A stretch of DNA of 64,000 nt from Octopus vulgaris. Taxonomy: Eukaryota. The notes beneath the pieces were generated by a model. That model did no database searches, was not told the origin of the DNA, and saw nothing but the letters and a program-made list of their open reading frames with translations. This document shows, piece by piece, positions 811 through 16,052 of the stretch. The stretch spans positions 15,872,001-15,936,000 of the forward strand of contig OX597840.1 in NCBI GenBank assembly GCA_951406725.2, in the 5' to 3' direction. Position 1 is the first letter of the stretch. Each line of letters begins with the position of its first letter. Position numbers and translations under genes: made by a program.

Positions 811-1214
811 GTATATATATATATATATATATATATGAGTTTACATCTCACTCAATCATTACACCAACCCCTAAGGGCTTAAATCCTGGGTTTTGTACCT
901 TTGACCTTTACATTGCCAAAGCAAAAGGATTAAATCCAATAGTACCAAAACCAGTAAACATACTGTCACACCTTGTGCCCAACTAACAAAAGAGAAACAC
1001 CTACTGGCTTGTTTATAAAGTTCTGCATGCATAAATAAATTCTAAACAATAGCATAACCTCAGATTTAATCAATTAAAAATTTTCCAAAATACCTTTCCA
1101 TAACAATCAACCATAAAAAAAACTTAATCACCACCCCACTCAAACCCACACACCCAAAGTTGATTTTTAACTCAACAGAGACTGTATAAAGGCAAGACTA
1201 ACTCTAATGCATCG

Positions 1215-1257
1215 CAGTCTAATGATGGCTTAGCTGGCCAAAACTTTGAAGTCACTG
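1215..1257 (+). ncRNA. Degenerate minimal type-I hammerhead motif
   Basis: cagt-CTAATGA-tggc ttagctg gcc-AAA-ACTTTGAAGT-C-actg. Helix I cagt/actg, helix II ggc/gcc, near-palindromic helix III. G5 and G12 are mutated to A. Confidence 0.55.
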
Positions 1258-1402
1258 TCAACAACATTCTTGTATAAAAATTATAAATTTGTACAAGAGT
1301 ATAGAGTAACTCATCAGATTAATTAAAATTTGTTTTATTGTTATTTTTTATTATTTTATAATTTATTATTATAACTGAACATAAAAAACAAACATTAATA
1401 TG

Positions 1403-1404
<2 letters not shown>

Positions 1405-1478
<74 letters not shown>
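1405..1478. repeat. (CA)n microsatellite
   Basis: About 37 perfect AC units. Confidence 0.99.
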
Positions 1479-1489
1479 CATACATATAT

Positions 1490-1921
1490 TCTTTTATTCT
1501 TTTATTTGTCTCAGTCATTTGGCTGTGGTCATGCAGGATTACCACTTTTAGTTAAACAAATCGACTCCGGGACTTATCCTTTGTAAGCCTAGCACTTACT
1601 CTATCGGTCTCTTTTGCTGAATCGCTAAGTTACGGGGAGATGAATACACCAACATCGGTTTTCAAGCAATGGTGGGGAGACAAACACAGACACAGAAACA
1701 TACATACATACATACATAAATACACACACACACACACACACACACATATATGTATATACGATGGGCTACTTTCAGTTTCCTTTCTACCAAATCCACTCAC
1801 AAGGCTTTGGTTGACCTGAGGCTATAGCAGAAGACACTTGCCCAAGGTGCCACACAGTGGGACTGAGCCCAAAAGAACCATGTGGTTGGTAATCAAGCTA
1901 TTTACCACGCATCACCTGCAC
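1490..1921 (-). mobile_element. tRNA-derived SINE, family A
   Basis: Reverse complement of the family seen at 55811-56218, with head, central microsatellite and ...GACTGAAACAAGTAAAAGAATA tail. Confidence 0.85.
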
Positions 1922-1966
<45 letters not shown>

Positions 1967-1997
1967 CATGTAGGAAGGTAGACAAATCACAAACGCC

Positions 1998-2032
<35 letters not shown>

Positions 2033-2038
<6 letters not shown>

Positions 2039-2546
2039 TAGTAATGCAATACAAAGTATCGCCTTCCAGTAAAGAATAGCCCGTGAGTTGTGCCATTTAT
2101 TTACTACTTTGTGTATTTTGTGTATTTTTCCCTCACGGGCTATTCTTTACTGGAAGGCGATACTTTGTATTGCATTACTAATTTATTGAAGCTTCTTCAC
2201 CGTTTTTCGTACTGTTGGCGTTCCGCGTTTCAGTCGAGTGTAATAGTATTAATGTGGTAACATGGTAGATTTCGTCATGGTATATGCTTGGCTGATGAAG
2301 ATAGAATAAGATATGGGTGGCAGTCATATCTTGTAAAATCTGAAACCTGCAGGTCCCACATTATCCTTTTCCGGGTATTTCATCTTTCAGATGTTCTCCC
2401 TGGAGGTAAGACGTTTTTCTCTAGTTTGTTGCACACACGCATTTTTACTAATACATACGCGGTGAAGCTATACATTAGCGTCGTATTTTTGCATTCGCTA
2501 TTTCCAGTAAATACCGGTACTTAGTTGTGCCATTTATTTACTACTT

Positions 2547-2553
<7 letters not shown>
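2033..2553 (+). mobile_element. PLE pLTR / retrozyme-like unit with 5' inverted segment
   Basis: Inverted repeat 2035-2087 / 2132-2184. Direct repeat agttgtgccatttatttactactttgtgtat at 2086 and 2523 (437-bp period). Contains a hammerhead. Flanked by (TA)n on both sides. Confidence 0.7.
2284..2361 (+). ncRNA. Type-I hammerhead ribozyme, canonical core
   Basis: tgg-CTGATGA-agat..aagatatg/catatctt..atct-GAA-ACCTGCAGGT-C-cca. Helix III is a 10-nt palindrome. Predicted cleavage after GTC at 2355. Confidence 0.8.
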
Positions 2554-2644
<91 letters not shown>

Positions 2645-2654
2645 GATGATGTGG

Positions 2655-3997
2655 ACAATTGTTCTGGGATCCCAGAAACGCACAGCAAACAATTTCCAAG
2701 CCTGGAACAACGAAGCCTGCTCGATCTGTAGAAAAGGCGTAGGTAGAAAATCTATAAGATGCACCAAGTGTAAGCTATGGACACATAAGAGGTGCAGCAA
2801 TGTCAAAGGAAGGCTAACTAGGAAGATAGTTTTTGTATGTGGAAGATGCTCAGGAGCAATAAACACTGAAAATGCGCAGAGACCAACTTCCGCCACATTC
2901 CCGGGAGAAAAACTAGAAATAGCTGATAGCTTCCGTTACCTAGGTGACCAAGTCAGTAGCAGGGGTGGGTGTGCTGAAAGTGTAATTGCTAGAGTAAGAA
3001 TAGCAGACTGTATAACGCATGTGTACGAACAGCCATGCTACATGGCAGTGAAACATGGGCCGTGACTGCTGAGAATATGCATAAGCTCGCAAGAAATGAA
3101 GCCAGTATGCTCCGATGGATGTGTAATGTCAGTGTTCATACTAGACAGAGTGTAAGTACCTTGAGAGAAAAGTTGGACCTAAGAAGCATCAGTTGTGATG
3201 CAAGAGAGACGTTTGCGCTAGTATGGTCATGTGGCGAGAATGGATGAAGATAGTTCTGTGAAAAAGTACCACACCCTAGCGGTTGAGGGAACCTGTGGAA
3301 GAGGCAGACCCAGGAAAACCTGGGACGAAGTGGTTAAGCACGACCTTCGAACTTTAGGTCTCACCGAGGAAATGACTAGAGACCGAGACCTTTGGAAGTA
3401 TGCTGTGCGTGAGAAGACCCGGCAGGACAAGTGAGACCATAACCCGTGGCCTCTACCTGGGATGTAGCCAGTCCACTTATGCATACCTTTCCTTCTTGGG
3501 ACACAAAACTCTACTTGTGAAGACCTGTTGAGGCAAGTGAAAATCGAAATCAAAATCAAAATCGAAATCGATCAACATCAATGGAAATTGTAGCTGTGAT
3601 ACCAGTGCTGGTGGTACGTAAGAGAACCATCCAAACGTGGCCGTTGCCAGAGCCGCCCCGACTGGCCTCCGTGCCGGTGGCACGTAAAAAGCACCATCCG
3701 ATCGTGGCCGTTGCCAGCCTCACCTGGCTCCCGTGCTGGTGGCACGTAAAAAGCACCATCCGATCGTGGCCGTTTGCCAGCCTCGTCTGGCACCTGTGCC
3801 AGTGGAACGTAGAAAGCACCCACTACACTCACGGAGTGGTTGGCGTTAGGAAGGGCATCCAGCCGTAGAAACATTACCAGATCAGACTGGGCCTGGTGCA
3901 GCCTTCTGGCTTCCCAGACCCCAGTTGAACCGTCCAACCATGGAAAGCGGACGCTAAACGATGATGATGATGAGGATGATGATGATGATGATGATGA
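2655..3997 (+). mobile_element. 5'-truncated RTE-clade LINE (PHD insert, thumb, C-terminus, 3'UTR, (GAT)n tail)
   Basis: ORF pieces CSICRKG..CTKCKLWTHKRC..CGRC, FRYLGD, LHGSETW, GRGRPRKTW, homologous to the ORF at 44928..48203. Has an internal deletion and frameshifts. Confidence 0.92.
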
Positions 3998-4908: not shown

Positions 4909-6900
4909 GGTTGAACAGTGAGGCCGTGAGCTTTGAGCTCCGTCCTAAAAAGAAAAAAGAACGAAGAACGAAAACAGAGAAGGTTGTCGAGGTAGGTGTT
5001 TGTTGTGAGCTGGGCATAATTTATTGCGTGTGAATTATTTTTTAAGTAAATTGTGCTCAGCTCTGGGACAATTTCGCCTGCTCTCGGCGGCTGCAGTTTT
5101 TGTATATCGAGAATTCATTGAATTCATTTTTGGTGGTGCGTATCCTCGCCCGAATAGAACCTTTTGCTGTTGCAGTTACCGTTGGTTGTAGCCAGCATAG
5201 TGTTTGAATTTCTGGAGTAATTTACCAATTACCGGACAAAAAAAAAAGATTTATGGCAAGGACCCTATCCACATTAGGCCGGGATTACCTGTTGGCCAGG
5301 AGATTGGATTTTTGCCGTGTGAACCGTTTTTCTATTTTCCGTTTATCCTTCCTGATTTTTTCTTTCCTTTTGAACTATTAATTAACTTTTGGACTTACTT
5401 TGTTTTATTATTTTTTTATATTTATTTTATTTTTTTGTGTACCTTTTTTACATTCCCTTTGAACTTTGAACTTTTTTGGGGGAACTTTTAAGACTTTCTT
5501 TTTTGCACATGGCAAAAACAAACGGAGCCGCTGTTTTGGAGTGGGAGGTGGTCCTACCCAAACAGTGGATTAAAGATCTTGAGAAGAGGACGGTGGTACT
5601 ACGGGCCTATTCTAAGTCGTGTGGTGCCATCGCCCTCTTCGACAAGAGTGTAGTAGAGAGAGAGTTGGCAGACTACCTGTCAACTATAAAATTTATTTCA
5701 CGGGGGACCAAATTTGCAACGGTCTGGTTGCTGTTTGGTACCCCTGAGGAAGCTGGCAGATTTGCCAGCGAGCCCCTTGAGAGAGAAGAAATTTTGTTCC
5801 TCCCTACTTATTGTGGGAGGAAGATAAGAAGAGACTGGGTGTGCGGGGTGCCCCCGGGCACGGAGGCGGAATGGATCGAGAAGACCATCCGGTGAGGCCT
5901 GAGGGATAGCAGGCCCAGGCTATTGAGTGTGAAGATTGCTCCCGCGGTCGACTGGGTGGACCCCGGTGGCCGTAGGAGACATGATGTTCCCGGACTTCCT
6001 AAAAATGGCCGGGTACAGGTACCCGGTGATACTTGAGGGACGCCCCTCCAAGTGTCACCTGTGCCTGGAGCCTGGCCATATCAAAAGGAACTGTCCAGGG
6101 GGCCGTGGTGGGACCCTGGAGCATGAGAAAGAGAAGGTGCCCGCCGCCCCCTCATTGGAAGGGGAGACGGTGGAAGTTGTGGAGGAAGTTGCCTCCACGA
6201 AAAGAAAAAGAAAGGTGAGCAACAATGGTTGCTCACCAAAGAATGTTCAGGCGGCGGAGGAGGGTAGTGAGCCCCCGCGTCTGTCGACGCAGCCCCCTGC
6301 TCCCGCAGCCTCAAAAAGAAAGAGGAAAAAGAAGAGCAGAGGACGGTCGGCGGATGTTCCTGGGCCGCCGACGGAGCCGCAGGTGGGATGTGTTCCACCT
6401 GTGGATAGGGCTCTGTCAGTGGGAAGTGTGCCACTGACGGAGCAGTGTGAGGTCCCTTCCTGTGAAGAGGAGGTGTTTGTCCTCCTTTATCACGAGGGAG
6501 GGACGGTGAGTAAATTTTTGGACGGCTTGGGTGACCGAGACCGTGTGCACTCGGTCTGCTCAAGTAGTCCGATATGGCCTCCGCAGGTGGCTGCGGAGGC
6601 AGTTACTGAAAAATTTTTGTCAAAGGTCACAGCGACCTTTGACAAGGAAGAATTTGCTTTCCTCTTTGCTGGCCCCGACTTGTCGATGCAGAGTTGTCTG
6701 CAGACGGCAAGTCACTTAGCTTGGGGACCTGACAAAGAGAATTGTTGTAAGAAACTTTGTTTTCGAGCGTTTGTTGGTCGGTGGGCGCCGACATCCCTCT
6801 CATCCGTATCATTTTGTTTCATTTCATCCCATCTTGTCTGGGTCCAGCCCACAAGCTTCTCTTTGTAAGGCCTATATGGCCAATTTAATGGAATAAAGAG
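4909..6900 (+). mobile_element. Non-autonomous Tx1/L1-like element encoding only a disrupted ORF1 (gag-like zinc knuckle)
   Basis: 10-bp TSD gcttgcttcc at 4899-4908 and 6901-6910. ORF1 from ATG 5509 with stop and frameshift near 5893-5940. CHLCLEPGHIKRNC knuckle (CX2CX4HX4C) at 6053-6094. AATAAA just before the 3' end. No endonuclease or RT motifs. Confidence 0.75.
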
Positions 6901-7626: not shown

Positions 7627-7708
7627 GACTAAAGCCATCTGAATATGGCTAGGGACAGGGCAGGGTGGTGGAGGTGTTACTGTTGCATTTAGCCCCAGGC
7701 GAACATCA

Positions 7709-7805
7709 ACGAAGCCAGAGGAAACTCTGGTGGAAGTCCGAAGCGCCTCTGACGTGCAAATCGATCGTCGGAACCGGGTGTAGGGGCGAAAGACCAATCG
7801 AGCCG

Positions 7806-7848
<43 letters not shown>

Positions 7849-8683
7849 CGCCAGCGGGAGAACGACACGCAATTCCGTCCGGTAAAGCGAACGACTGGAG
7901 GCCCCGGGGACGTTGACGGCCTCGATCTACTCTCGAACTCGGAACGGGCGAAACGGGCCGCTCCTCTCTCGATCGGAGGCGGCCGCCGTTATGCGACGAC
8001 GAATGCACGGTGCCAAGTGGGCCACTTTTGGTAAGCAGAACTGGTGATGTGGGATGAACCGAACGTCCGGCTAAGGTGCCCTACGCTTCGCCCATTAGAT
8101 CCCCGAAAGGGTGTCGGTCGATATAGACAGCAGGACGGTGGCCACGGAAGTCGGAATCCGCTCAGGAGTGTGTAACAACTTACCTGCCGAATCGACCGGC
8201 CCCGAAAATGGATGGCGCTGGAGCGAGCGACCGATGCCGGACCGGCCGGGCGACAGGTTGCGCGATCGCCGGCGAGGCGACTTTCCGATGCCCGGTCGAG
8301 TAGGAGGGCGCCGCGGCGTGCATGGAAGCCGCGGGCGCGAGCCCGGGTGAAGCCGACCGCGGGTGCAGATCTCGGTGGTAGTAGCAAATATTCGAACGAG
8401 ACCTTCGAAGACCGAAGTGGAGAAGGGTTCCGTGCCAACGGCGGTCGAGCACGGGTCAGTCGGTCCTAAGAAGCGGGCGAAAGCTTCCACGAAAGGCGCC
8501 GGATCCGTCGTTAGAAGAAGAACTCCCGTAGTTCGAATCAGTTACGCGGCCGGCCTCGCATCGAAAGGGAATCGGGTTAATATTCCCGAACCCGAACTCG
8601 GAGAGTGCCCGTCCGTCGGCGGGAACGCGGCGTGCTCTTCCTAGCAGCGCGTCCGTCGTCGAAGCCGGCGGCCGGGCGAAGAG
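7709..8683 (+). rRNA. 28S rRNA internal fragment (ectopic copy, probably a pseudogene)
   Basis: Conserved LSU blocks GAAGCCAGAGGAAACTCTGGTGGA, TAGTAGCTGGTTCCCTCCGAAGTTTCCCTCAGGATAGC, GCAGATCTCGGTGGTAGTAGCAAATATTC, GAAAGGGAATCGGGTTAATATTCC. The 5' part of 28S, 5.8S and 18S are absent. Confidence 0.97.
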
Positions 8684-10440
8684 GGGGGCTTGATGGTTAT
8701 GACCCACGAACCTTGCAATGGTGTGTGTTCCCACAGCTCTTCCACTTGGGGTGAACCTGACAGCACTCGATTGGGTTGATTTGTCCCTTCCCCGAGAAAC
8801 CCGAGTTTCGTTTGGGGCAGAAAGGCTTTAGTCGGAGGGGCACCTGCGGTGTCCTATAGGAACACCGGTGTGGATGGTGTACAGGGGGATACACACCTGC
8901 AGTGTTGGCAGCGAGGCGAGAGGGTGGATGCACCATCAAGTTTGTCTGGTATGTTATGATCTGCCGGGTCTTACCCGGGAGATGGATGCACTGCCAGGCT
9001 TCACCCTTAGGGACACTACCTTGTCGTGGTTTAAGAGCTTACGTCTGCGGGCGGGACGCAAGCCGTTATTGGACTTGCGGGCGCCAACCCGTCAGCGGAC
9101 TAACTAAATGTGTCCTTTCCCCATAGCGGTTCCAATTATTTGGTGGGGACCAAGCAGTGTGGAGGATTATCGTGTGCAGAGTGGGATGATACCCTGCTGT
9201 TGGTCATGGTTGCGCTTGTCGGCCTCCTGCTCATCCGAGTCGGCCACTACCTGGCTTCGGTATGGTGTGAAGGCCCCCTATTTCTTTATAGAATTTCACG
9301 GGGCGGCGCCCACGGACGGCTAAGGTTAGAACGGCCGGGTTCGCTCTCCGGATTGGGCTGCTGACGGGGCGAGGTGGGGATGGGGTGTTTCCACCCTGCC
9401 TCTTATCTCGCCCATAAGTTAGCGCCTCGAGAAGGTTGCTGTTCCTGCTGTCCCTGCTGTCTTTGGGTGGCTCACGACGTTGTCTCCTGACGCCGATTGT
9501 TGTGGCTCACACAATTTATTGCTGGAGCGGACTCACTTTCGGCCTCATTACGGGAGCCAGTCAACTGACGGGTAAACCGTCAATATTGACTTTGTCTCCT
9601 GACGCCAGATTGTTGTGACTCACGCAATTTATTGCGTGAGTGGACTCACTTTCGGCCTCACTACGGGAGACAGTCGAATGACGGGTAAACCGTCAGTATT
9701 GAGCCCTTCGCGGACTGTTGCGGGGTATTTGGCTTAGTATGAGGATTTCGGTTGGCTAGGAAGGATGTTGGCTTACGGTCTGCAGGGTCTGACTCCTTAC
9801 TCTTGTACTCTTGATTTTCTTCCTTTTACTCTTTGGAAAATGCCGCGAAGTCCAATTCTTCAACTAAAAGTTAAGAAACACACGGTTGCCAGGGGCCGTA
9901 TAAGATGGTGGCTTGAGGGCAAAAGAGCGGGGCTCCAAGCCAGGCCGAGCGTGTTGCCCAACCACGTTGGGCCGCTATCTACGCTTCCTGCAGTTGTATA
10001 GAGCCATTTACACTGCAGGTAATACTAATGGCTCGCTTACCAAACTCGACCCTGAGAGCTTATATCGGATCCTGCACATAAAACCCCCTCGATGAAGTCC
10101 TCAAATTTTTTTTTTTTTTTTAGAGGACCGAGAGGCTGGTGTGTAGGATGCCCCTCAAGTTTTTTTTTTTTTTTTTTTTTTGTTGAGGAGGTGGCATGGT
10201 TTGGGGGCCGTGCCTCGATATGAGCTTCAAATAAATATAAGAAAAATCAAAATAACAACCTGAATTGGACTTAAAGCTTCTTCTGCCCATCGAAGAAGCA
10301 CCCGCTTCTGTTAGTTTTAGATCCCCTTTTGTTTTCTGTTTTTTTTAGTTTTAAGATTAATGAAGTTGGGACCTGGCTGTGACAGTGTGGGGCCACCCAC
10401 GTTAATAAAAGGGAAAGAGACACTATTTGTCTCACTTAGA
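8684..10440 (+). mobile_element. Insert at the canonical R2 site of 28S, without recognisable RT or endonuclease (candidate non-autonomous or decayed R2-type element)
   Basis: 28S resumes precisely at TAGCCAAATGCCTCGTCATCTAATTAG (10441). The upstream 28S segment is missing. Longest ORF in the insert is under 90 aa. Confidence 0.75.
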
Positions 10441-10480
<40 letters not shown>

Positions 10481-11132
10481 CGGATCAACGAGATTCCCAC
10501 TGTCCCTATCTACTGTCTAGCGAAACCACAGCCAAGACCCTGTTGAGCTTGACTCTAGTCCGGTTTTGTGAGGGCACACGGTAGGCGTAGCATAGGCGGT
10601 AGCATTCGCGTTGCCCCGCGCCGGGCGCTGCCGTCACCGGCGGCGCGCTGGCGTGCTGTTCGTTGTCCGCCGTCGCGCCTCGCGTGCGGCGGTCGGTTTC
10701 GTCGGTGCGCCGTGGGCGCCGTCGGCTAAGCGCGTTCGACGTCGGGGTGTCGCGCGCGTTTGCGACGATGAAAAACCGCCACTTCCGTAGTTTCCTCGCT
10801 CACTCGATGGAGAAGGGATCGGGCCGTCGCCGAGCGGTGGTTCATTATCTGGTGCGAAGCGCGCGGTGCATGTCGAGCGCCTTTGCGGGCGCCGGCGCAG
10901 CCGATGCGCGACCCTTAGTCGAGAACAGTGTCGGTCGGGGAGTTTGACTGGGGCGGTACGTCTGTCAAACGGTAACGCAGGTGTCCCAAGGCGAGCTCAG
11001 CGTGGACGGAAACCACACGTCGAGCAAAAGGGCAAAAGCTCGCTCGATCTCGATTTTCAGTACGAATACGGACCGCAAAAGCGTGGCCCATCGATCCTTT
11101 CCGAATTACAGCGGCGAGCTATGCGTCCGCCG

Positions 11133-11175
<43 letters not shown>

Positions 11176-11198
11176 GGCCAAGCGTTCGCAGCGACGTC

Positions 11199-11235
<37 letters not shown>

Positions 11236-11277
11236 CGAAGCAGAATTCGCAAAGCGTTGGATTGTTCACCCACTAAC

Positions 11278-11324
<47 letters not shown>

Positions 11325-11912
11325 TCCTACCGATGCATCGCGCGTACGCGGCGCCCCGAGTCGCGTCGGGGTACTCGGCGTGCGGTCGAGGCGGCGGCGC
11401 GCTCGCGCGTCCGTCCGTCCTGGCCGTGCCGCCGGCGTTTCTCCGGCCGACCTTAGGCGGGCGTCGGCAACGTCAACTCGGCTACGGCTATCCCGTCCAG
11501 TACGAGAGGAACCGCGGGATCAGAGCAACGGTTTGCGCGCTCGCTCGATAGAGCGGTGGTGCCAGGCTGCCTCTGAGCGATAACGGCTGAACGCCTCTAA
11601 GCCGGAACCGTAGCCGGACCCGAGTTGTTTTCCAAAAGCGTCTCAACCTCAAGGCGCATGCCTTAGCTCGGCGTTCGCCGTTCGCGCGGCGAGCAGCAGC
11701 GTCGCCGGCGGAATTGCCATTCGGGGACGCGACGGCGGCTGCGGCGTTCGCGCCATGGTCGTCTGCTCGTCGTCCCGCCCCGACTAGTTCGAAGAGATCG
11801 AGACGAAAGGGATCGCTTGCATACGACCCGACTTGCCGTTCGGAGTGACGTGCTTAGTAGAGCAGCTACCACACTGCGATCTATTGAGTCTCTTCTCGCG
11901 AACGACACGATC
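10441..11912 (+). rRNA. 28S rRNA 3' part (ectopic copy with an internal deletion of about 34 nt)
   Basis: TAGCCAAATGCCTCGTC, GGGGAGTTTGACTGGGGCGGTAC, AAAAGTTACCACAGGGATAACTGGCTTGTGGC, sarcin-ricin loop AGTACGAGAGGAACC (about 11499), terminal CTGCGATCTATTGA. GC-rich expansion segments. 3' end approximate. Confidence 0.97.
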
Positions 11913-12390
11913 CGCCCCTTCGAGGCGGAGAAGCGGGAGGAGGTGAGGAAAGATGTCGAAATTGTTGCGGCTTGGAGTCGGAGTCGGAGTTACGAAGTGT
12001 TGCGTTGCGTCTCGTCTCGTCACGTCTTGTCCGCGTCGAACGACTCGGCGCGCGGTAATAGTCGTCGTTGCCGTAACCGCCTTCGTCTCGGCCGCCGAAT
12101 CGAGCGCGCGTCGGCTTAGCAGCGCGCGCTCCGTTGCGGGTTCGTTTAGGTGAGAAGTGGGAGAAACGGAACCTCCTGCTTAGTGCGCGAGTAGACGGGG
12201 TTGCTGCGCCAACGTGCAGCACCGTGACCGATCGTAACTTTCTGTACCGCCGACGAGTCGTCGCCCGTCGGCGTCCGGCTCGGGCCCCGGTCTCGCGGAG
12301 CGACGGACAAACTCTGAGTAGAACACGGCGACTGCGTGTTGTCGAAGCGGCGACTTCTCGGCATCGTCGTCCGATTGGCGAGGCGCCGCG

Positions 12391-12565
12391 TGAACGGATC
12401 GAAGGCGAGGAGCGTGTCCCTATCTACTGTCTAGCGAATGCAGAGCCGAGGGTACGGGCTTGAAGAAGTTCTCGGTATCGAGCGCGGGTAAACGGCGGGA
12501 GTAAGGTGAACGGATCGAAGGCGACGAGGATATTGCCGTTGTCCCTACCTACTACTGTCTAGCGA
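12391..12565 (+). repeat. Two diverged copies (116-bp period) of the 28S R1/R2 target region inside the IGS
   Basis: tgtccctatctactgtctagcgaa (12415-12438) is identical to 10501-10524. agcgcgggtaaacggcgggagtaa (12481-12504) is conserved 28S sequence normally just upstream of the R2 site. Confidence 0.88.
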
Positions 12566-12574
12566 TAAGCAGAG

Positions 12575-13037
12575 CTGAGTTACGACGAAGACCACGAGTG
12601 TGTGTGTCCGTGTGTTATCGAAGCGGCGATTTCACTTGAGAGAGTTCTCGGTCGAGTGTACGAGTCGAAAGAGTTATGCGGCCGGTTGATTGCCGGGGAG
12701 TAAGTCTGAGTTACGACGAAGACCACGAGTGTGTGTGTCCGTGTGTTATCGACGCGCATCGAAGCGGCGATTTCACTTGAGAGAGTTCTCGGTCGAGTGT
12801 ACGAGTCGAAAGAGTTATGCGGCCGGTTGATTGCCGGGGAGTAAGTCTGAGTTACGACGAAGACCACGAGTGTGTGTGTCCGTGTGTTATCGACGCGCAT
12901 CGAAGCGGCGATTTCACTTGAGAGAGTTCTCGGTCGAGTGCACGAGTCGAAAGAGTTATGCGGCCGGTTGATTGCCGGGGAGTAAGTCTGAGTTACGACG
13001 AAGACCACGAGTGTGTGTGTCCGTGTGTTATCGACGC
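12575..13037 (+). repeat. 141-bp IGS tandem subrepeat, about 3.3 units
   Basis: ctgagttacgacgaagaccacgag recurs at 12575, 12706, 12847, 12988. Confidence 0.97.
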
Positions 13038-13092
13038 GAGCGACGCGGTCCGACCCGTAAGTCGAAGGAATCAGACCCGTATGCTTGCGGGT

Positions 13093-15310
13093 CGGCCCCG
13101 GCTGGATAGTCACGCCTCTAGGTGACCGTCGCACCCCAAGGGGGGTCAGGACTATATTGAGGGCTTGCAGTCGGCAGGTGGATGTCTCCGGGACCGTTCG
13201 GAAGGATGCCAGAGACGTCAGCCTACGACGCCGTCAGCCCGGCGGGCGGCCGCCGCCTTCGCGCCGCCTCGCTTTCTCCCGTTCGTCCACGCCCCGCGGG
13301 GCCGTTTGCGGCAGGCCTGCGCCTGTCGCCCGTTCCTCCGCCGCGCTACCGCGCCCGAAATCGAAAGAACGAACCCAAGCTCGCGGTACGGCCCACGGAC
13401 GCGTGGACGTAGCCGCCACCGATGCCGGAAGGCGTTCACGAGATGCACGCGGTCGATACGGAGACGCGGTCCGTCCCGTAAAATCCCGAAGGATGACAAA
13501 CTGCGGCTAGCAAGAGGTAGCGGCGGAAGGCCTGCGCCGGTCGCCCGTTGCTCCGCCGCCCTACCGTGCCCGAAATCGAAAGAACGAACCCAAGCTCGCG
13601 GTACGGCCCACGGACGCGTGGACGTAGCCGCCAGCGATGCCGGAAGGCGTTCACGAGGGGCACGCGCTCGATACGGCGACGCGGTCCGTCCCGTAAAATC
13701 CCGAAAGATGACAAACTGCGGCTAGCGCGAGGTAGCGGCAGGCCTGCGCAAGGCCTGCGCCTTTCGCCCGCGTCTCCGCAGCCAAACCGTGCGTGAAATC
13801 GAAAGCACGAAACTAAGCGGGGGGTGTCGGCCACGTACGAGTGGACCTAGCCGCGACCGATGTTGCGAGGTACGGGCGTTCGATACGGCGACGTGGTCCG
13901 TCTCGTAAATTCCCGAAAGATGACAAACTGCGGCGGGCCTGCGCCCGCCTTCGCCCGCGCCTTCGCCCGCGCCTTCGCCCTCGCCTCCGACGCGCTACCG
14001 CGAGGCTGAAGTAAGGGCTTAAGCGAAGCTTGCGCTCTCGCCCACGTACACGTGGACGTAGGCGCGATCGATGCCGTCAGTCGCCGGGAGTGCGTGGCGA
14101 CATGCACCGGGTAAAAACAGCGACGTGGTCCGACCCATGAGTTAAGGAGGTGCTCGGACCGTAAGCAAACGGATCGGCCCCGGCTGGATAGTCACGCCTC
14201 TAGGTGACCGTCGCACCCCAAGGGGGTCAAGACTATATTGAGGGCTTGCAGTCGGCAGGTTGATGCCTCGGGGACCGTTCGGCAGGATGCCAGAGACGTC
14301 AGCCTGCGACGCCGTCAGCCCGGCGGGTGGCCGCCGCCTTCGCGCCGCCTCGCTTTCTCCCGTTCGTCCACGAGCCGCGGGGCCGTTAGCGGCAGACCCG
14401 CGCCGGTAACCCGTTCCTCCGCCGCGCTACCGTGCCCGAAACCGAAAGAACGAACCCACGCTCGCGGTACGGCCCACGGACGCGTGGACGTAGCCGCCAC
14501 CGATGCCGGAAGGCGTTCACGAGATGCACGCCGTCGATACGGCGACGTGGTCCGTCCCGTAAAAACCCGAAAGATGGCAAACTGCGGCTAGCACGGTCGC
14601 CCGTTGCTCCGCCGCCCTAGCGTGCCCGAAATCGAAAGAACGAACCTAAGCTCGCGGTGCGACCCCCGTACGCGTGGACGTAGCCGCCACCGGTGCCGGA
14701 AGGCGTTCACGAGATACCGGCGCTCGATAGGAGTACGTGGTCCGTCCCGTAAAATCCCGAAAGATGACAAACTGCGGCTGGCACGAGGTAGCGGCGGAAG
14801 GCGTGCGCCGGTCGCCCGCGTCTCCGCCGCCCTACCGTGCGTGAAATCGAAAGCACGAACTTGAGCGTGCGGTCTCGCCCACGTACGCGTGGACGTAGCC
14901 GCGACCGATGTCGCGAGGTGCGGGCGTCCGATGCGGCGACGCGGTCCGTCCCGTAAATTCCCGAAAGATGACAAAGTTGCGGCCAGTGCAGGCAACGGCC
15001 GATAGCGGCGGGCATGCGCCCGCCTTCTACCGCCTTCGCCCGCAGCTCCGCCGCGCTACCGCGAGGCTCGAGTGGGGCTTAAGCGAAACTTGCGCTCTCG
15101 CCCACGTACACGTGGACGTAGGCGCGATCGATGCCGTCAGTCGCCGGGAGTGCGTGGCGATATGCACCGGGTAAAAACAGCGACGTGGTCCGACCCATGA
15201 GCAAGGAGGTGCTCGGACCGTAAGCAAACGGATCGGCCCCGGCTGGATAGTCACGCCTCTAGGTGACCGTCGCACCCCAAGGGGGTCCAGACTAATATGT
15301 AGGGTTGTGG
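13093..15310 (+). promoter_or_regulatory. Candidate Pol I spacer promoters (13093, 14175) and gene promoter (15234), separated by enhancer-like subrepeats of about 215 bp
   Basis: Block cggccccggctggatagtcacgcctctaggtgaccgtcgcaccccaagggg occurs three times, followed by actatattgaggg (twice) or actaatatgtaggg. These resemble TATA-GGG type rDNA initiation sites. Period about 1.07 kb. Confidence 0.6.
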
Positions 15311-15976
15311 TTGATCGGCATAGGTTAGCGTCTCGGAGGGATGTCCTCGTAGCTCCTTTTCTGACGACGGTTAGCTCCCCGTTTGCCGGTGCAAGATCGA
15401 CTCTACACGGCCGGCGCGTCCTCGAATTTCCGCCGCCGAACCGCCCGCCTTTCAGACGCTGCGTTCGCCCGCCCGTTGACGCCCGCGTTTGCCCGCCTTC
15501 GCCCGCCTTTTGAAGCTCGCCTTCGCCCGCCTCTGGACGTCCGCTTCTTCACGCCCGCCTATTAGACGCTGCGTTCTACCCGCATCTTTCGACGCACGCC
15601 TTCGCCCGCCTTCGCCCGCCTACGTCCGCCTTCGCCCGCCTCCGGACGTCCGACTTTGCCCGCCTTTCAGACGCCGCTGCGTTCGCCCGACCCTTTCGAC
15701 GCACGCGTTTGCCCGCCTTCGCTCGCTCGCCCGCCGGCAACCGCCGCACAAGCGCTCTTTACGTAGGGTCGCGGCCGAACGGCATAGGTGGACCGCCTGG
15801 AAGGGATGTTGTCGGCGCTCCTTTCTGCCAACGGTTAGATCCCTTATTGCCGGTGCAAGGTCGACTCTACACGGCTGGCGCGTCCTCGAATGTCTGCCGC
15901 CGCCGCCACACCGCCCGCCTTTCAGACGCGCTCCCTCGACGCCCGCGTCTGCCCGCCTCTTCACGCTCGCCGGTTC

Positions 15977-16052
15977 GTGCCACACAGTGGGACTGAACCC
16001 GGAACCATGTGGTTGGGAAGCAAACTTCTTACCACCCAGCACGCTTGCACCT
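15977..16052 (-). mobile_element. SINE family A head, truncated at the rDNA junction
   Basis: gtgccacacagtgggactgaacccggaaccatgtggttgggaagc is the reverse complement of the head. Confidence 0.8.

Follow-up and report, generated by a model that had tools for sequence, protein, structure and literature searches.

The intergenic spacer (IGS) of octopus ribosomal DNA (rDNA) holds a piece of the 28S rRNA gene that covers the insertion sites of the R2 and R1 retrotransposons, which raises the questions of how this piece arose, whether it still presents a target to R2, and whether selection maintains it. We addressed these questions in a window of 64,000 nt from Octopus vulgaris (contig OX597840.1; "the window" is the whole stretch analyzed) and in sequencing runs from four organisms, A to D. 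Offsets are counted from the R2 nick, GG/T, with T as +1.

A broken rDNA unit with an insert at its R2 nick

Two features frame the locus:

7697 to 11913, forward strand: truncated, interrupted 28S of an rDNA orphon (Rfam large-subunit pieces, model positions 821 to 3399).
8683 to 10440, forward strand: 1.76-kb insert whose 3′ junction lies exactly at the R2 nick; the 28S restarts at 10441 with TAGCCAAATG.

An Rfam search recovered eukaryotic large-subunit (LSU) rRNA in pieces at 7697 to 11913 and neither 18S nor 5.8S rRNA at gathering score, and microsatellite-rich DNA lies on both sides of the unit. The window contains a single broken octopus rDNA unit, an orphon, whose 28S is both the context and the source of the spacer copy described below. 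From 10441 on, expansion segment included, the orphon 28S agrees by eye with the published downstream 28S of O. vulgaris and O. sinensis (PMC13188248, Table S2); the same table gives full R2 elements for O. vulgaris, O. sinensis, and O. rubescens. The orphon lacks 34 nt of the published O. vulgaris and O. sinensis 28S at 10536-10537, between two AAG. Just 5′ of the orphon, at 5470 to 6868, gag-like frames occur in broken form, and Pfam gives a weak zinc-knuckle match there (zf-CCHC, E 0.003, below cut-off).

The 28S upstream of the insert is deleted. The insert has no long open reading frame in six-frame translation and no second copy elsewhere in the window, and two short motifs of the listed octopus R2 (R2-1_OVu) are absent from it, as they are from the whole window at up to 3 mismatches. 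A 113-bp tandem pair occupies 9476 to 9702, and the 3′ end of the insert faintly resembles 28S −32 to −3 (82/2000 shuffles). This layout recalls fish R2 families, which have a 28S-like 3′ untranslated region and a 5′ junction shifted upstream (PMC5035012), and the insert is possibly a non-autonomous or second R2-type family.

A duplicated copy of the R2/R1 region in the spacer

About 450 nt past the 28S end lies a colinear copy of about 165 nt of 28S, spanning −57 to +108 around the R2 nick, that is diverged, tandemly duplicated, and grades into 141-bp repeats. Its parts are as follows:

12361 to 12462, forward strand: first copy of the downstream half, +10 to +108; 68 of 92 columns identical to the orphon's own 28S where comparable.
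12415 to 12438, forward strand: perfect 24-mer, +61 to +84, identical to the window's 28S at 10501 to 10524; it starts at the Drosophila R1 site.
12461 to 12504, forward strand: copy of the upstream half, −57 to −18; 0/2000 shuffles reach its match.
12488 to 12500, forward strand: intact 13-bp R2 upstream motif (RUM, −34 to −22), an exact match.
12507 to 12579, forward strand: second, more broken copy of the downstream half, +37 to +96; 53 of 73 columns identical to the orphon's own 28S.

The copy lies between the 28S end (11913) and three putative promoter duplicates (13062, 14144, and 15203). A tile scan, which peaks here, confines 28S homology to 12354 to 12593 of the 4.1-kb spacer, and an nhmmer profile of 11 LSU pieces searched against 11914 to 16000 returned two matches, both of them these 28S-like pieces (E 1.9e-9 for 12415 to 12463). 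The first copy by itself matches Rfam LSU positions 2272 to 2388 weakly (E = 3), and its 18 substitutions relative to the orphon's own 28S include 10 AT>GC and 2 GC>AT changes. The Drosophila R1 insertion position that opens the perfect 24-mer is +60 (PMC2718515). Upstream of the nick, 12481 to 12504 corresponds to 28S −41 to −18; compared with LSU references from a scan of genome contigs (at least 17 loci with eukaryote LSU pieces), it is identical at 24/24 positions in 14 of the 17 loci retrieved; of the other three, L012 matches at 23/24 and L017 at 21/21 positions, and L007 aligns over a longer, gapped stretch. Local alignment scores are 73 and 61, against shuffle maxima of 33 and 30 (500 shuffles). 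The original prediction had singled out these two perfect 24-nt blocks; both are real, at 12415 to 12438 and 12481 to 12504, and they prove to be parts of one longer colinear copy and not to be invariant.

The upstream-half copy overlaps the first copy by 2 nt (TG), a head-to-tail tandem joint. The second copy of the downstream half matches the first at 77% (E 2e-8) and shares derived changes with it, which suggests duplication of a spacer copy that had already diverged; a 3-nt duplication lies within its R1-side block. In organism B (introduced below), joints 12491>12390 and 12626>12349 on contigs of single-copy depth in run X3 jump back within the 28S-like region, pointing to further tandem duplications of this region in other orphons or rare units.

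Repeats around the copy

Downstream of 11913 the spacer runs from the 28S-like region through 141-bp, 215-bp, and 190-bp repeats together with three 105-nt duplicates. Two features adjoin the 28S-like copy:

12314 to 12359, forward strand: module shared with the 141-bp repeat, 20/22 nt; 0/2000 shuffles against 12575 to 12634.
12617 to 13038, forward strand: 141-bp tandem repeat, 3 copies in the window, expanded in the arrays.

A 28S origin of the module at 12314 to 12359 is not demonstrable (416/2000 shuffles against 28S and 307/2000 against the spacer's upstream copy). We considered it as a decayed upstream half, which would have made it an independent deletion of the R2 site, and found no support for this reading in the same shuffles; we therefore discarded the figure of 0.085 for three deletions all spanning the nick. 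An R2 core alignment given by Rfam at 12340 to 12360 was also rejected as chance level (919/2000 shuffles).

In the 141-bp repeat the upstream copy is still faintly recognizable, more so against the spacer's own upstream copy (13/2000 shuffles) than against 28S (35/2000). Earlier inspection had proposed that these repeats retain traces of the unit, which holds to this faint degree, and had counted gacgcgcat among them; we did not count that word as a trace, its expected occurrence being about 0.09 and its sequence being variable in the arrays. Repeat depth is 5.5, 5.6, 7.4, and 53 times that of the 28S-like block in the four runs described below, marking the 141-bp unit as an expanded, number-variable subrepeat. 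The idea that the spacer has amplified the region targeted by R1 and R2 thus needs dividing: a copy of the target region is present, and the amplified 141-bp part is the one with the least 28S likeness.

The 105-nt duplicates (13062 to 13166, 14144 to 14248, and 15203 to 15307) are about 1.07 kb apart, each behind a 190- to 215-bp repeat block, and look like duplicated Pol I promoters; the last is followed by a C-rich stretch resembling a 5′ external transcribed spacer, cut at about 15970. A 28S derivation of the 215- and 190-bp repeats was rejected (no Rfam LSU or nhmmer match; best tile 30.5 among about 100 tiles). At 14514 to 14633 these repeats share a 12- to 13-nt word with LSU model positions of about 813 to 825, which is not significant after about 100 tiles.

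The copy belongs to the main rDNA arrays

Part of 11930 to 12760 occurs in 20 of the 24 runs listed (12 studies, 7 organism labels), and half or more of its words in none. Four of the 24 (X1, X3, X6, and X8, from organisms A, B, C, and D, respectively) were compared over the region 11330 to 12760 only; no run containing the region is listed as RNA, and organisms E, F, and G, with small shares in what we guess to be RNA runs, were left aside. Depth over the block, relative to the median over the 28S end, is 1.27, 1.10, 1.11, and 0.42 in the four runs, and block depth is 600 to 5700 times that of single-copy-like contigs (both from summed contig depth, which is rough and not a copy number). Block depth of this order in all four runs places the spacer copy in the main array, and it is no orphon artifact. 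One contig (X6 contig 19, 297 nt, depth 4130) spans 12269 to 12547. The blocks thus occur in bona fide rDNA units of all four organisms, and the objection that they might be confined to the orphon fails. There is roughly one set of the clear 28S copy to each rDNA unit, and this clear part amounts to two partial copies only.

Two losses at the junction

12503 to 12507, forward strand: junction; the window lacks 15 nt (−18 to −4), AGGT represents −3 to +1, and +2 to +37 (or +1 to +36) are absent.

The joint reads gggagtaa-ggt-gaacggatc at 12497 to 12516, exactly as first described. The accompanying statement that the TTAAGG/TAGCC core is gone is correct for the window and does not extend to the arrays of C and D, where 15 additional bases follow 12503 at undiminished depth (4129.6/4129.6 and 2922.5/2922.5, one contig each); the same 15 bases occur in organism B as a loose end on 2 contigs. 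Twelve of the 15 match 28S −18 to −4 (against the Rfam consensus and octopus upstream 28S), so that the C/D copy is unbroken to TTCAGG/T and then jumps to +38. The 36 nt downstream, from the nick onward, are missing both in the window and in the X6 contig that spans the junction. The 15 nt carried by C and D imply two separate losses: the 36 nt from the nick onward went first, and the window additionally shows the loss of 15 nt. In organism A the 15-nt insertion is absent from the rows listed (depth 75,836 at the site; 24 of 537 loose ends listed), and its array may share the 15-nt loss or its contigs may end there.

A 36-nt deletion within a 176-nt unit would start at the nick by chance with a P of about 0.07, and the joint (12506-12507) has 1 to 2 nt of microhomology, T or GT.

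R2 target rules applied to the copies

Nicking by the silkmoth element R2Bm requires the RUM at −34 to −22, an unshortened spacing, and the consensus T−6 T N A N N T+1, and +6 to +37 are dispensable (PMC10499050). Read by hand in one contig per run against these silkmoth rules, the C/D array copy has the RUM, the 15-nt spacing, and the nick consensus. It differs from 28S at −4, −14, and −15, and four bases at +2 to +5 are changed together. The window copy keeps the RUM and fails in spacing and at T−6, its last 7 nt being GTAAGGT; the spaced pattern has no match in the window. The exact RUM occurs once in the whole window, and the amplified repeat lacks it. The RUM at 12488 to 12500 is unchanged across the four runs among the 40 of 67 variants listed.

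We predict that R2 could nick the array copy in C, D, and probably B, such a site having arisen as a by-product, and that the window copy is dead. Removal of the cut site had been taken as the defining trait of this region, a view that the C/D arrays overturn, since their upstream half survives to the nick and agrees with the published R2Bm consensus. The N-termini of lineage A R2 elements bind the upstream half only, with a second footprint centered on −15 (PMC11204384), and the −15 and −14 substitutions of the C/D copy fall inside this second footprint. By eye, the octopus R2 open reading frame has three finger-like motifs (PMC13188248, Table S2).

Among the loose ends (24 of 537) and joints (15 of 33) listed, from contigs that drop rare variants, none marks an R2 insertion at the spacer nick. 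No R2 sequence follows the upstream 28S bases in the spacer, where 28S from +37 onward is found instead.

Rate of change

If the 24-mers were constrained, they should be more conserved than adjacent spacer. Among the 40 of 67 variants listed, one change separates organisms A and C within the 24-mers (48 sites) and five separate them in the remaining 28S-like sequence (167 sites; p = 1), a comparison of low power. On the same variants, the 28S-like region as a whole (6/215) does not differ from the upstream neighboring spacer (3/91, p = 0.73) and does differ from mature 28S (2/584, p = 0.006). The X6 contig carries 3 further differences beyond those placed, at positions absent from the variants listed. 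Provisionally, then, the copy evolves like spacer and faster than 28S, with little power to detect modest constraint; decay of the blocks at the spacer rate, which had been named as evidence against a function, is what we find at this low power. Variants within the blocks include 12483 C>T in B and C and a T inserted behind 12424 in about one-quarter of B depth. Against neutrality, a perfect run of 24 columns among 92 with 68 identities has a P of 0.004 under random placement; to explain it takes constraint, patchy mutation, or a recent conversion by 28S of the same array.

Origin of the spacer copy

We favor, at a probability of roughly 0.55, the reading that the spacer copy is a neutral relic and that R2 nicking probably triggered both its capture and its trimming, which makes a scar of cleavage and repair the best fitting of the three mechanisms put forward at the outset (a decoy and a terminator or fork barrier being the others). 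From the observed homology, joints, array presence, and rates we infer the following order of events, and with it a part for R2. One 28S piece (−57 to +108) would have been copied to about 450 nt past the 28S end, and the spacer copy would then have drifted GC-ward. A head-to-tail duplication of the drifted copy would have left the 2-nt overlap at the joint and the derived changes in common, after which the second copy would have lost 36 nt from the nick onward and later copies would have decayed into the 141-bp repeat. Concerted evolution would have carried the arrangement through the array before the split of the four lineages, and the lineage of the window copy would later have lost 15 more bases. 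R2 is implicated because the genus has R2, the orphon has an insert at its nick, R2 duplicates 28S sequence at its junctions, and a breakpoint falls on the nick; the link itself is that one breakpoint, with its P of about 0.07 and its microhomology of 1 to 2 nt. The continued breakage of the copies (the 3-nt duplication in the second R1-side block, the 15-nt loss, and 12483 C>T) favors a relic, whereas the clumping of the perfect run (P = 0.004) and the lack of any match in the spacer to the two short R2 motifs count against this reading.

The alternative that survives best is slippage or unequal recombination within the rDNA unit without R2, the overlap with the R2/R1 region being a matter of chance. 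Short microhomology is present at both joints (TG at 12461-12462 and T or GT at 12506-12507). The orphon 28S has lost 34 nt between two AAG where there is no element, the coincidence of nick and breakpoint reaches a P of only about 0.07, and transfer from spacer to spacer has a precedent in Anopheles, in which ITS2 carries a paralogue of an ITS1 subrepeat (PMC9935728). Against this, the sole clear 28S piece in the 4.1-kb spacer centers on the insertion hotspot, and the genus has R2. We regard this alternative as rather unlikely.

A second alternative is that the copy is maintained as a decoy or sink, a second site in each unit that takes R2 binding, nicking, or insertion and so spares the 28S. 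Several properties of the C/D copy would suit this role: it retains the 13-bp RUM, the 15-nt spacing, and T−6 T N A N N T+1, with losses only downstream of +1, where +6 to +37 are dispensable for R2Bm nicking (PMC10499050); lineage A N-termini bind the upstream half alone (PMC11204384), and the octopus R2 has its three finger-like motifs by eye. All four runs carry roughly one set of the copy per unit, and its perfect run is clumped (P = 0.004). However, the 3 to 4 substitutions would spare the R2-critical bases by chance at P 0.11 to 0.52, two of them (−15 and −14) lie inside the second of the lineage A footprints (PMC11204384), and the spacing is gone in the window copy. No excess conservation shows at the low power available (1/48 versus 5/167, with few sites and 40 of 67 variants listed), the repeat that was amplified is one without a RUM, and there are no loose ends at the spacer nick among the 24 of 537 listed. 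A maintained decoy is in our judgment improbable. Quite improbable, too, is the bolder proposal that selection keeps a second nickable R2 site in every unit, drawing R2 off the 28S or driving array turnover without breaks in rRNA genes, and that the spacers of other animals have independently done likewise.

Termination and fork-barrier signals in other eukaryotes are located at such a distance behind the 28S as the roughly 450 to 650 nt at which this copy lies. It is nonetheless very improbable that the copy serves as a terminator, a fork barrier, or a site for some other protein, or that it mimics 28S helices as RNA once the 3′ spacer is transcribed, since we know of no terminator derived from the R2/R1 stretch of 28S, a terminator or barrier finds no support here, the copies fold no better than shuffles (z −0.25, +1.21, and +0.03) unlike the 28S hairpin (z −2.91), and the two AU>GC double changes seen by eye in the hairpin region of the first copy are expected from AT>GC drift (10/18).

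Relation to known systems

A close comparison is the canonical R2 target in 28S (RUM −34 to −22, RASIN −6 to +1; PMC10499050), with which the C/D copy has RUM, spacing, and nick consensus in common. The octopus copy differs in lying in the spacer, in its changes at −4, −14, and −15, and in the absence of +2 to +37; the window copy lacks a further 15 nt and fails the consensus. R2 duplicates 7 to 113 nt of 28S at its junctions (PMC3774820), and these 5′ junction duplications, like the 28S-like 3′ untranslated regions of fish R2 (PMC5035012), involve the same upstream target bases with drift by few substitutions. Those copies stay joined to R2 inside 28S, whereas the octopus copy showed no R2 sequence and includes both sides of the nick.

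Subrepeats of internal origin are known from ITS1 and ITS2 of Anopheles punctulatus (PMC9935728), from IGS satellites of Lepidoptera (PMC10257491), and from a model of IGS formed of transposon scars (10.1101/2023.02.20.529178); in these, as in octopus, part of the rDNA unit was transferred into a spacer, where it became tandem, number variable, and homogenized. The octopus donor, in contrast, is the conserved core of an rRNA gene and a retrotransposon target, a case not described in the parts of these sources available to us. SINE28, named in PMC10946416, is likewise a 28S fragment outside the gene; it is dispersed, whereas the octopus copy sits at a constant position in the rDNA unit, and we saw neither an A-tail nor a target duplication. 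A copy of the R2 site in a spacer is undescribed in the available parts of reviews, of the transposon-scar preprint, and of papers on honey bee rDNA and Lepidoptera, and a literature search, outside which most subscription papers lay, yielded neither an account of an octopus IGS nor one of a spacer copy of the 28S R2 site. A review table that enters R2 in the spacer of Inachis io was set aside, the available part of its source paper placing IiR2 in rRNA genes. The break reported in octopus 28S by PMC13321053 is elsewhere in the gene and has no bearing on the spacer copy.

Metagenome scans returned 0 matches to the junction and 0 to the spaced octopus-type pattern, and viral contigs also 0. Some reference loci showed features of their own near the nick. 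At 505 to 545 of L017, a 642-bp contig in a bacterial assembly, 28S −39 to +2 stands with no LSU around it, an upstream half-site ending at the nick; an apparent second copy on this contig adjoins an N and may be a scaffolding artifact. In L015 (48 to 118 and 4135 to 4173), eukaryote 28S is split by about 4 kb with +26 to +39 on both sides and TTCTGG for TTAAGG, and its +39 is near the far end of the spacer deletion (+36/+37). The position of this interruption presumably fits an R4-type element. Of the 17 LSU loci, six (L002, L004, L005, L007, L013, and L014) stop no more than about 20 nt from the R2 nick and L006 diverges at the nick itself, a pattern to be expected if a mixture of inserted and uninserted units interrupts assembly.

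Implications

A practical caution is that 28S probes and searches for R2 sites will also match spacer in these species. Even as a relic, the copy means that the R2 hotspot seeds spacer repeats. Further, some octopus lineages have a predicted second R2 site throughout the array and another has a broken one, a natural comparison that bears on whether R2 benefits or harms its hosts and on whether copies of its target outside 28S absorb insertions.
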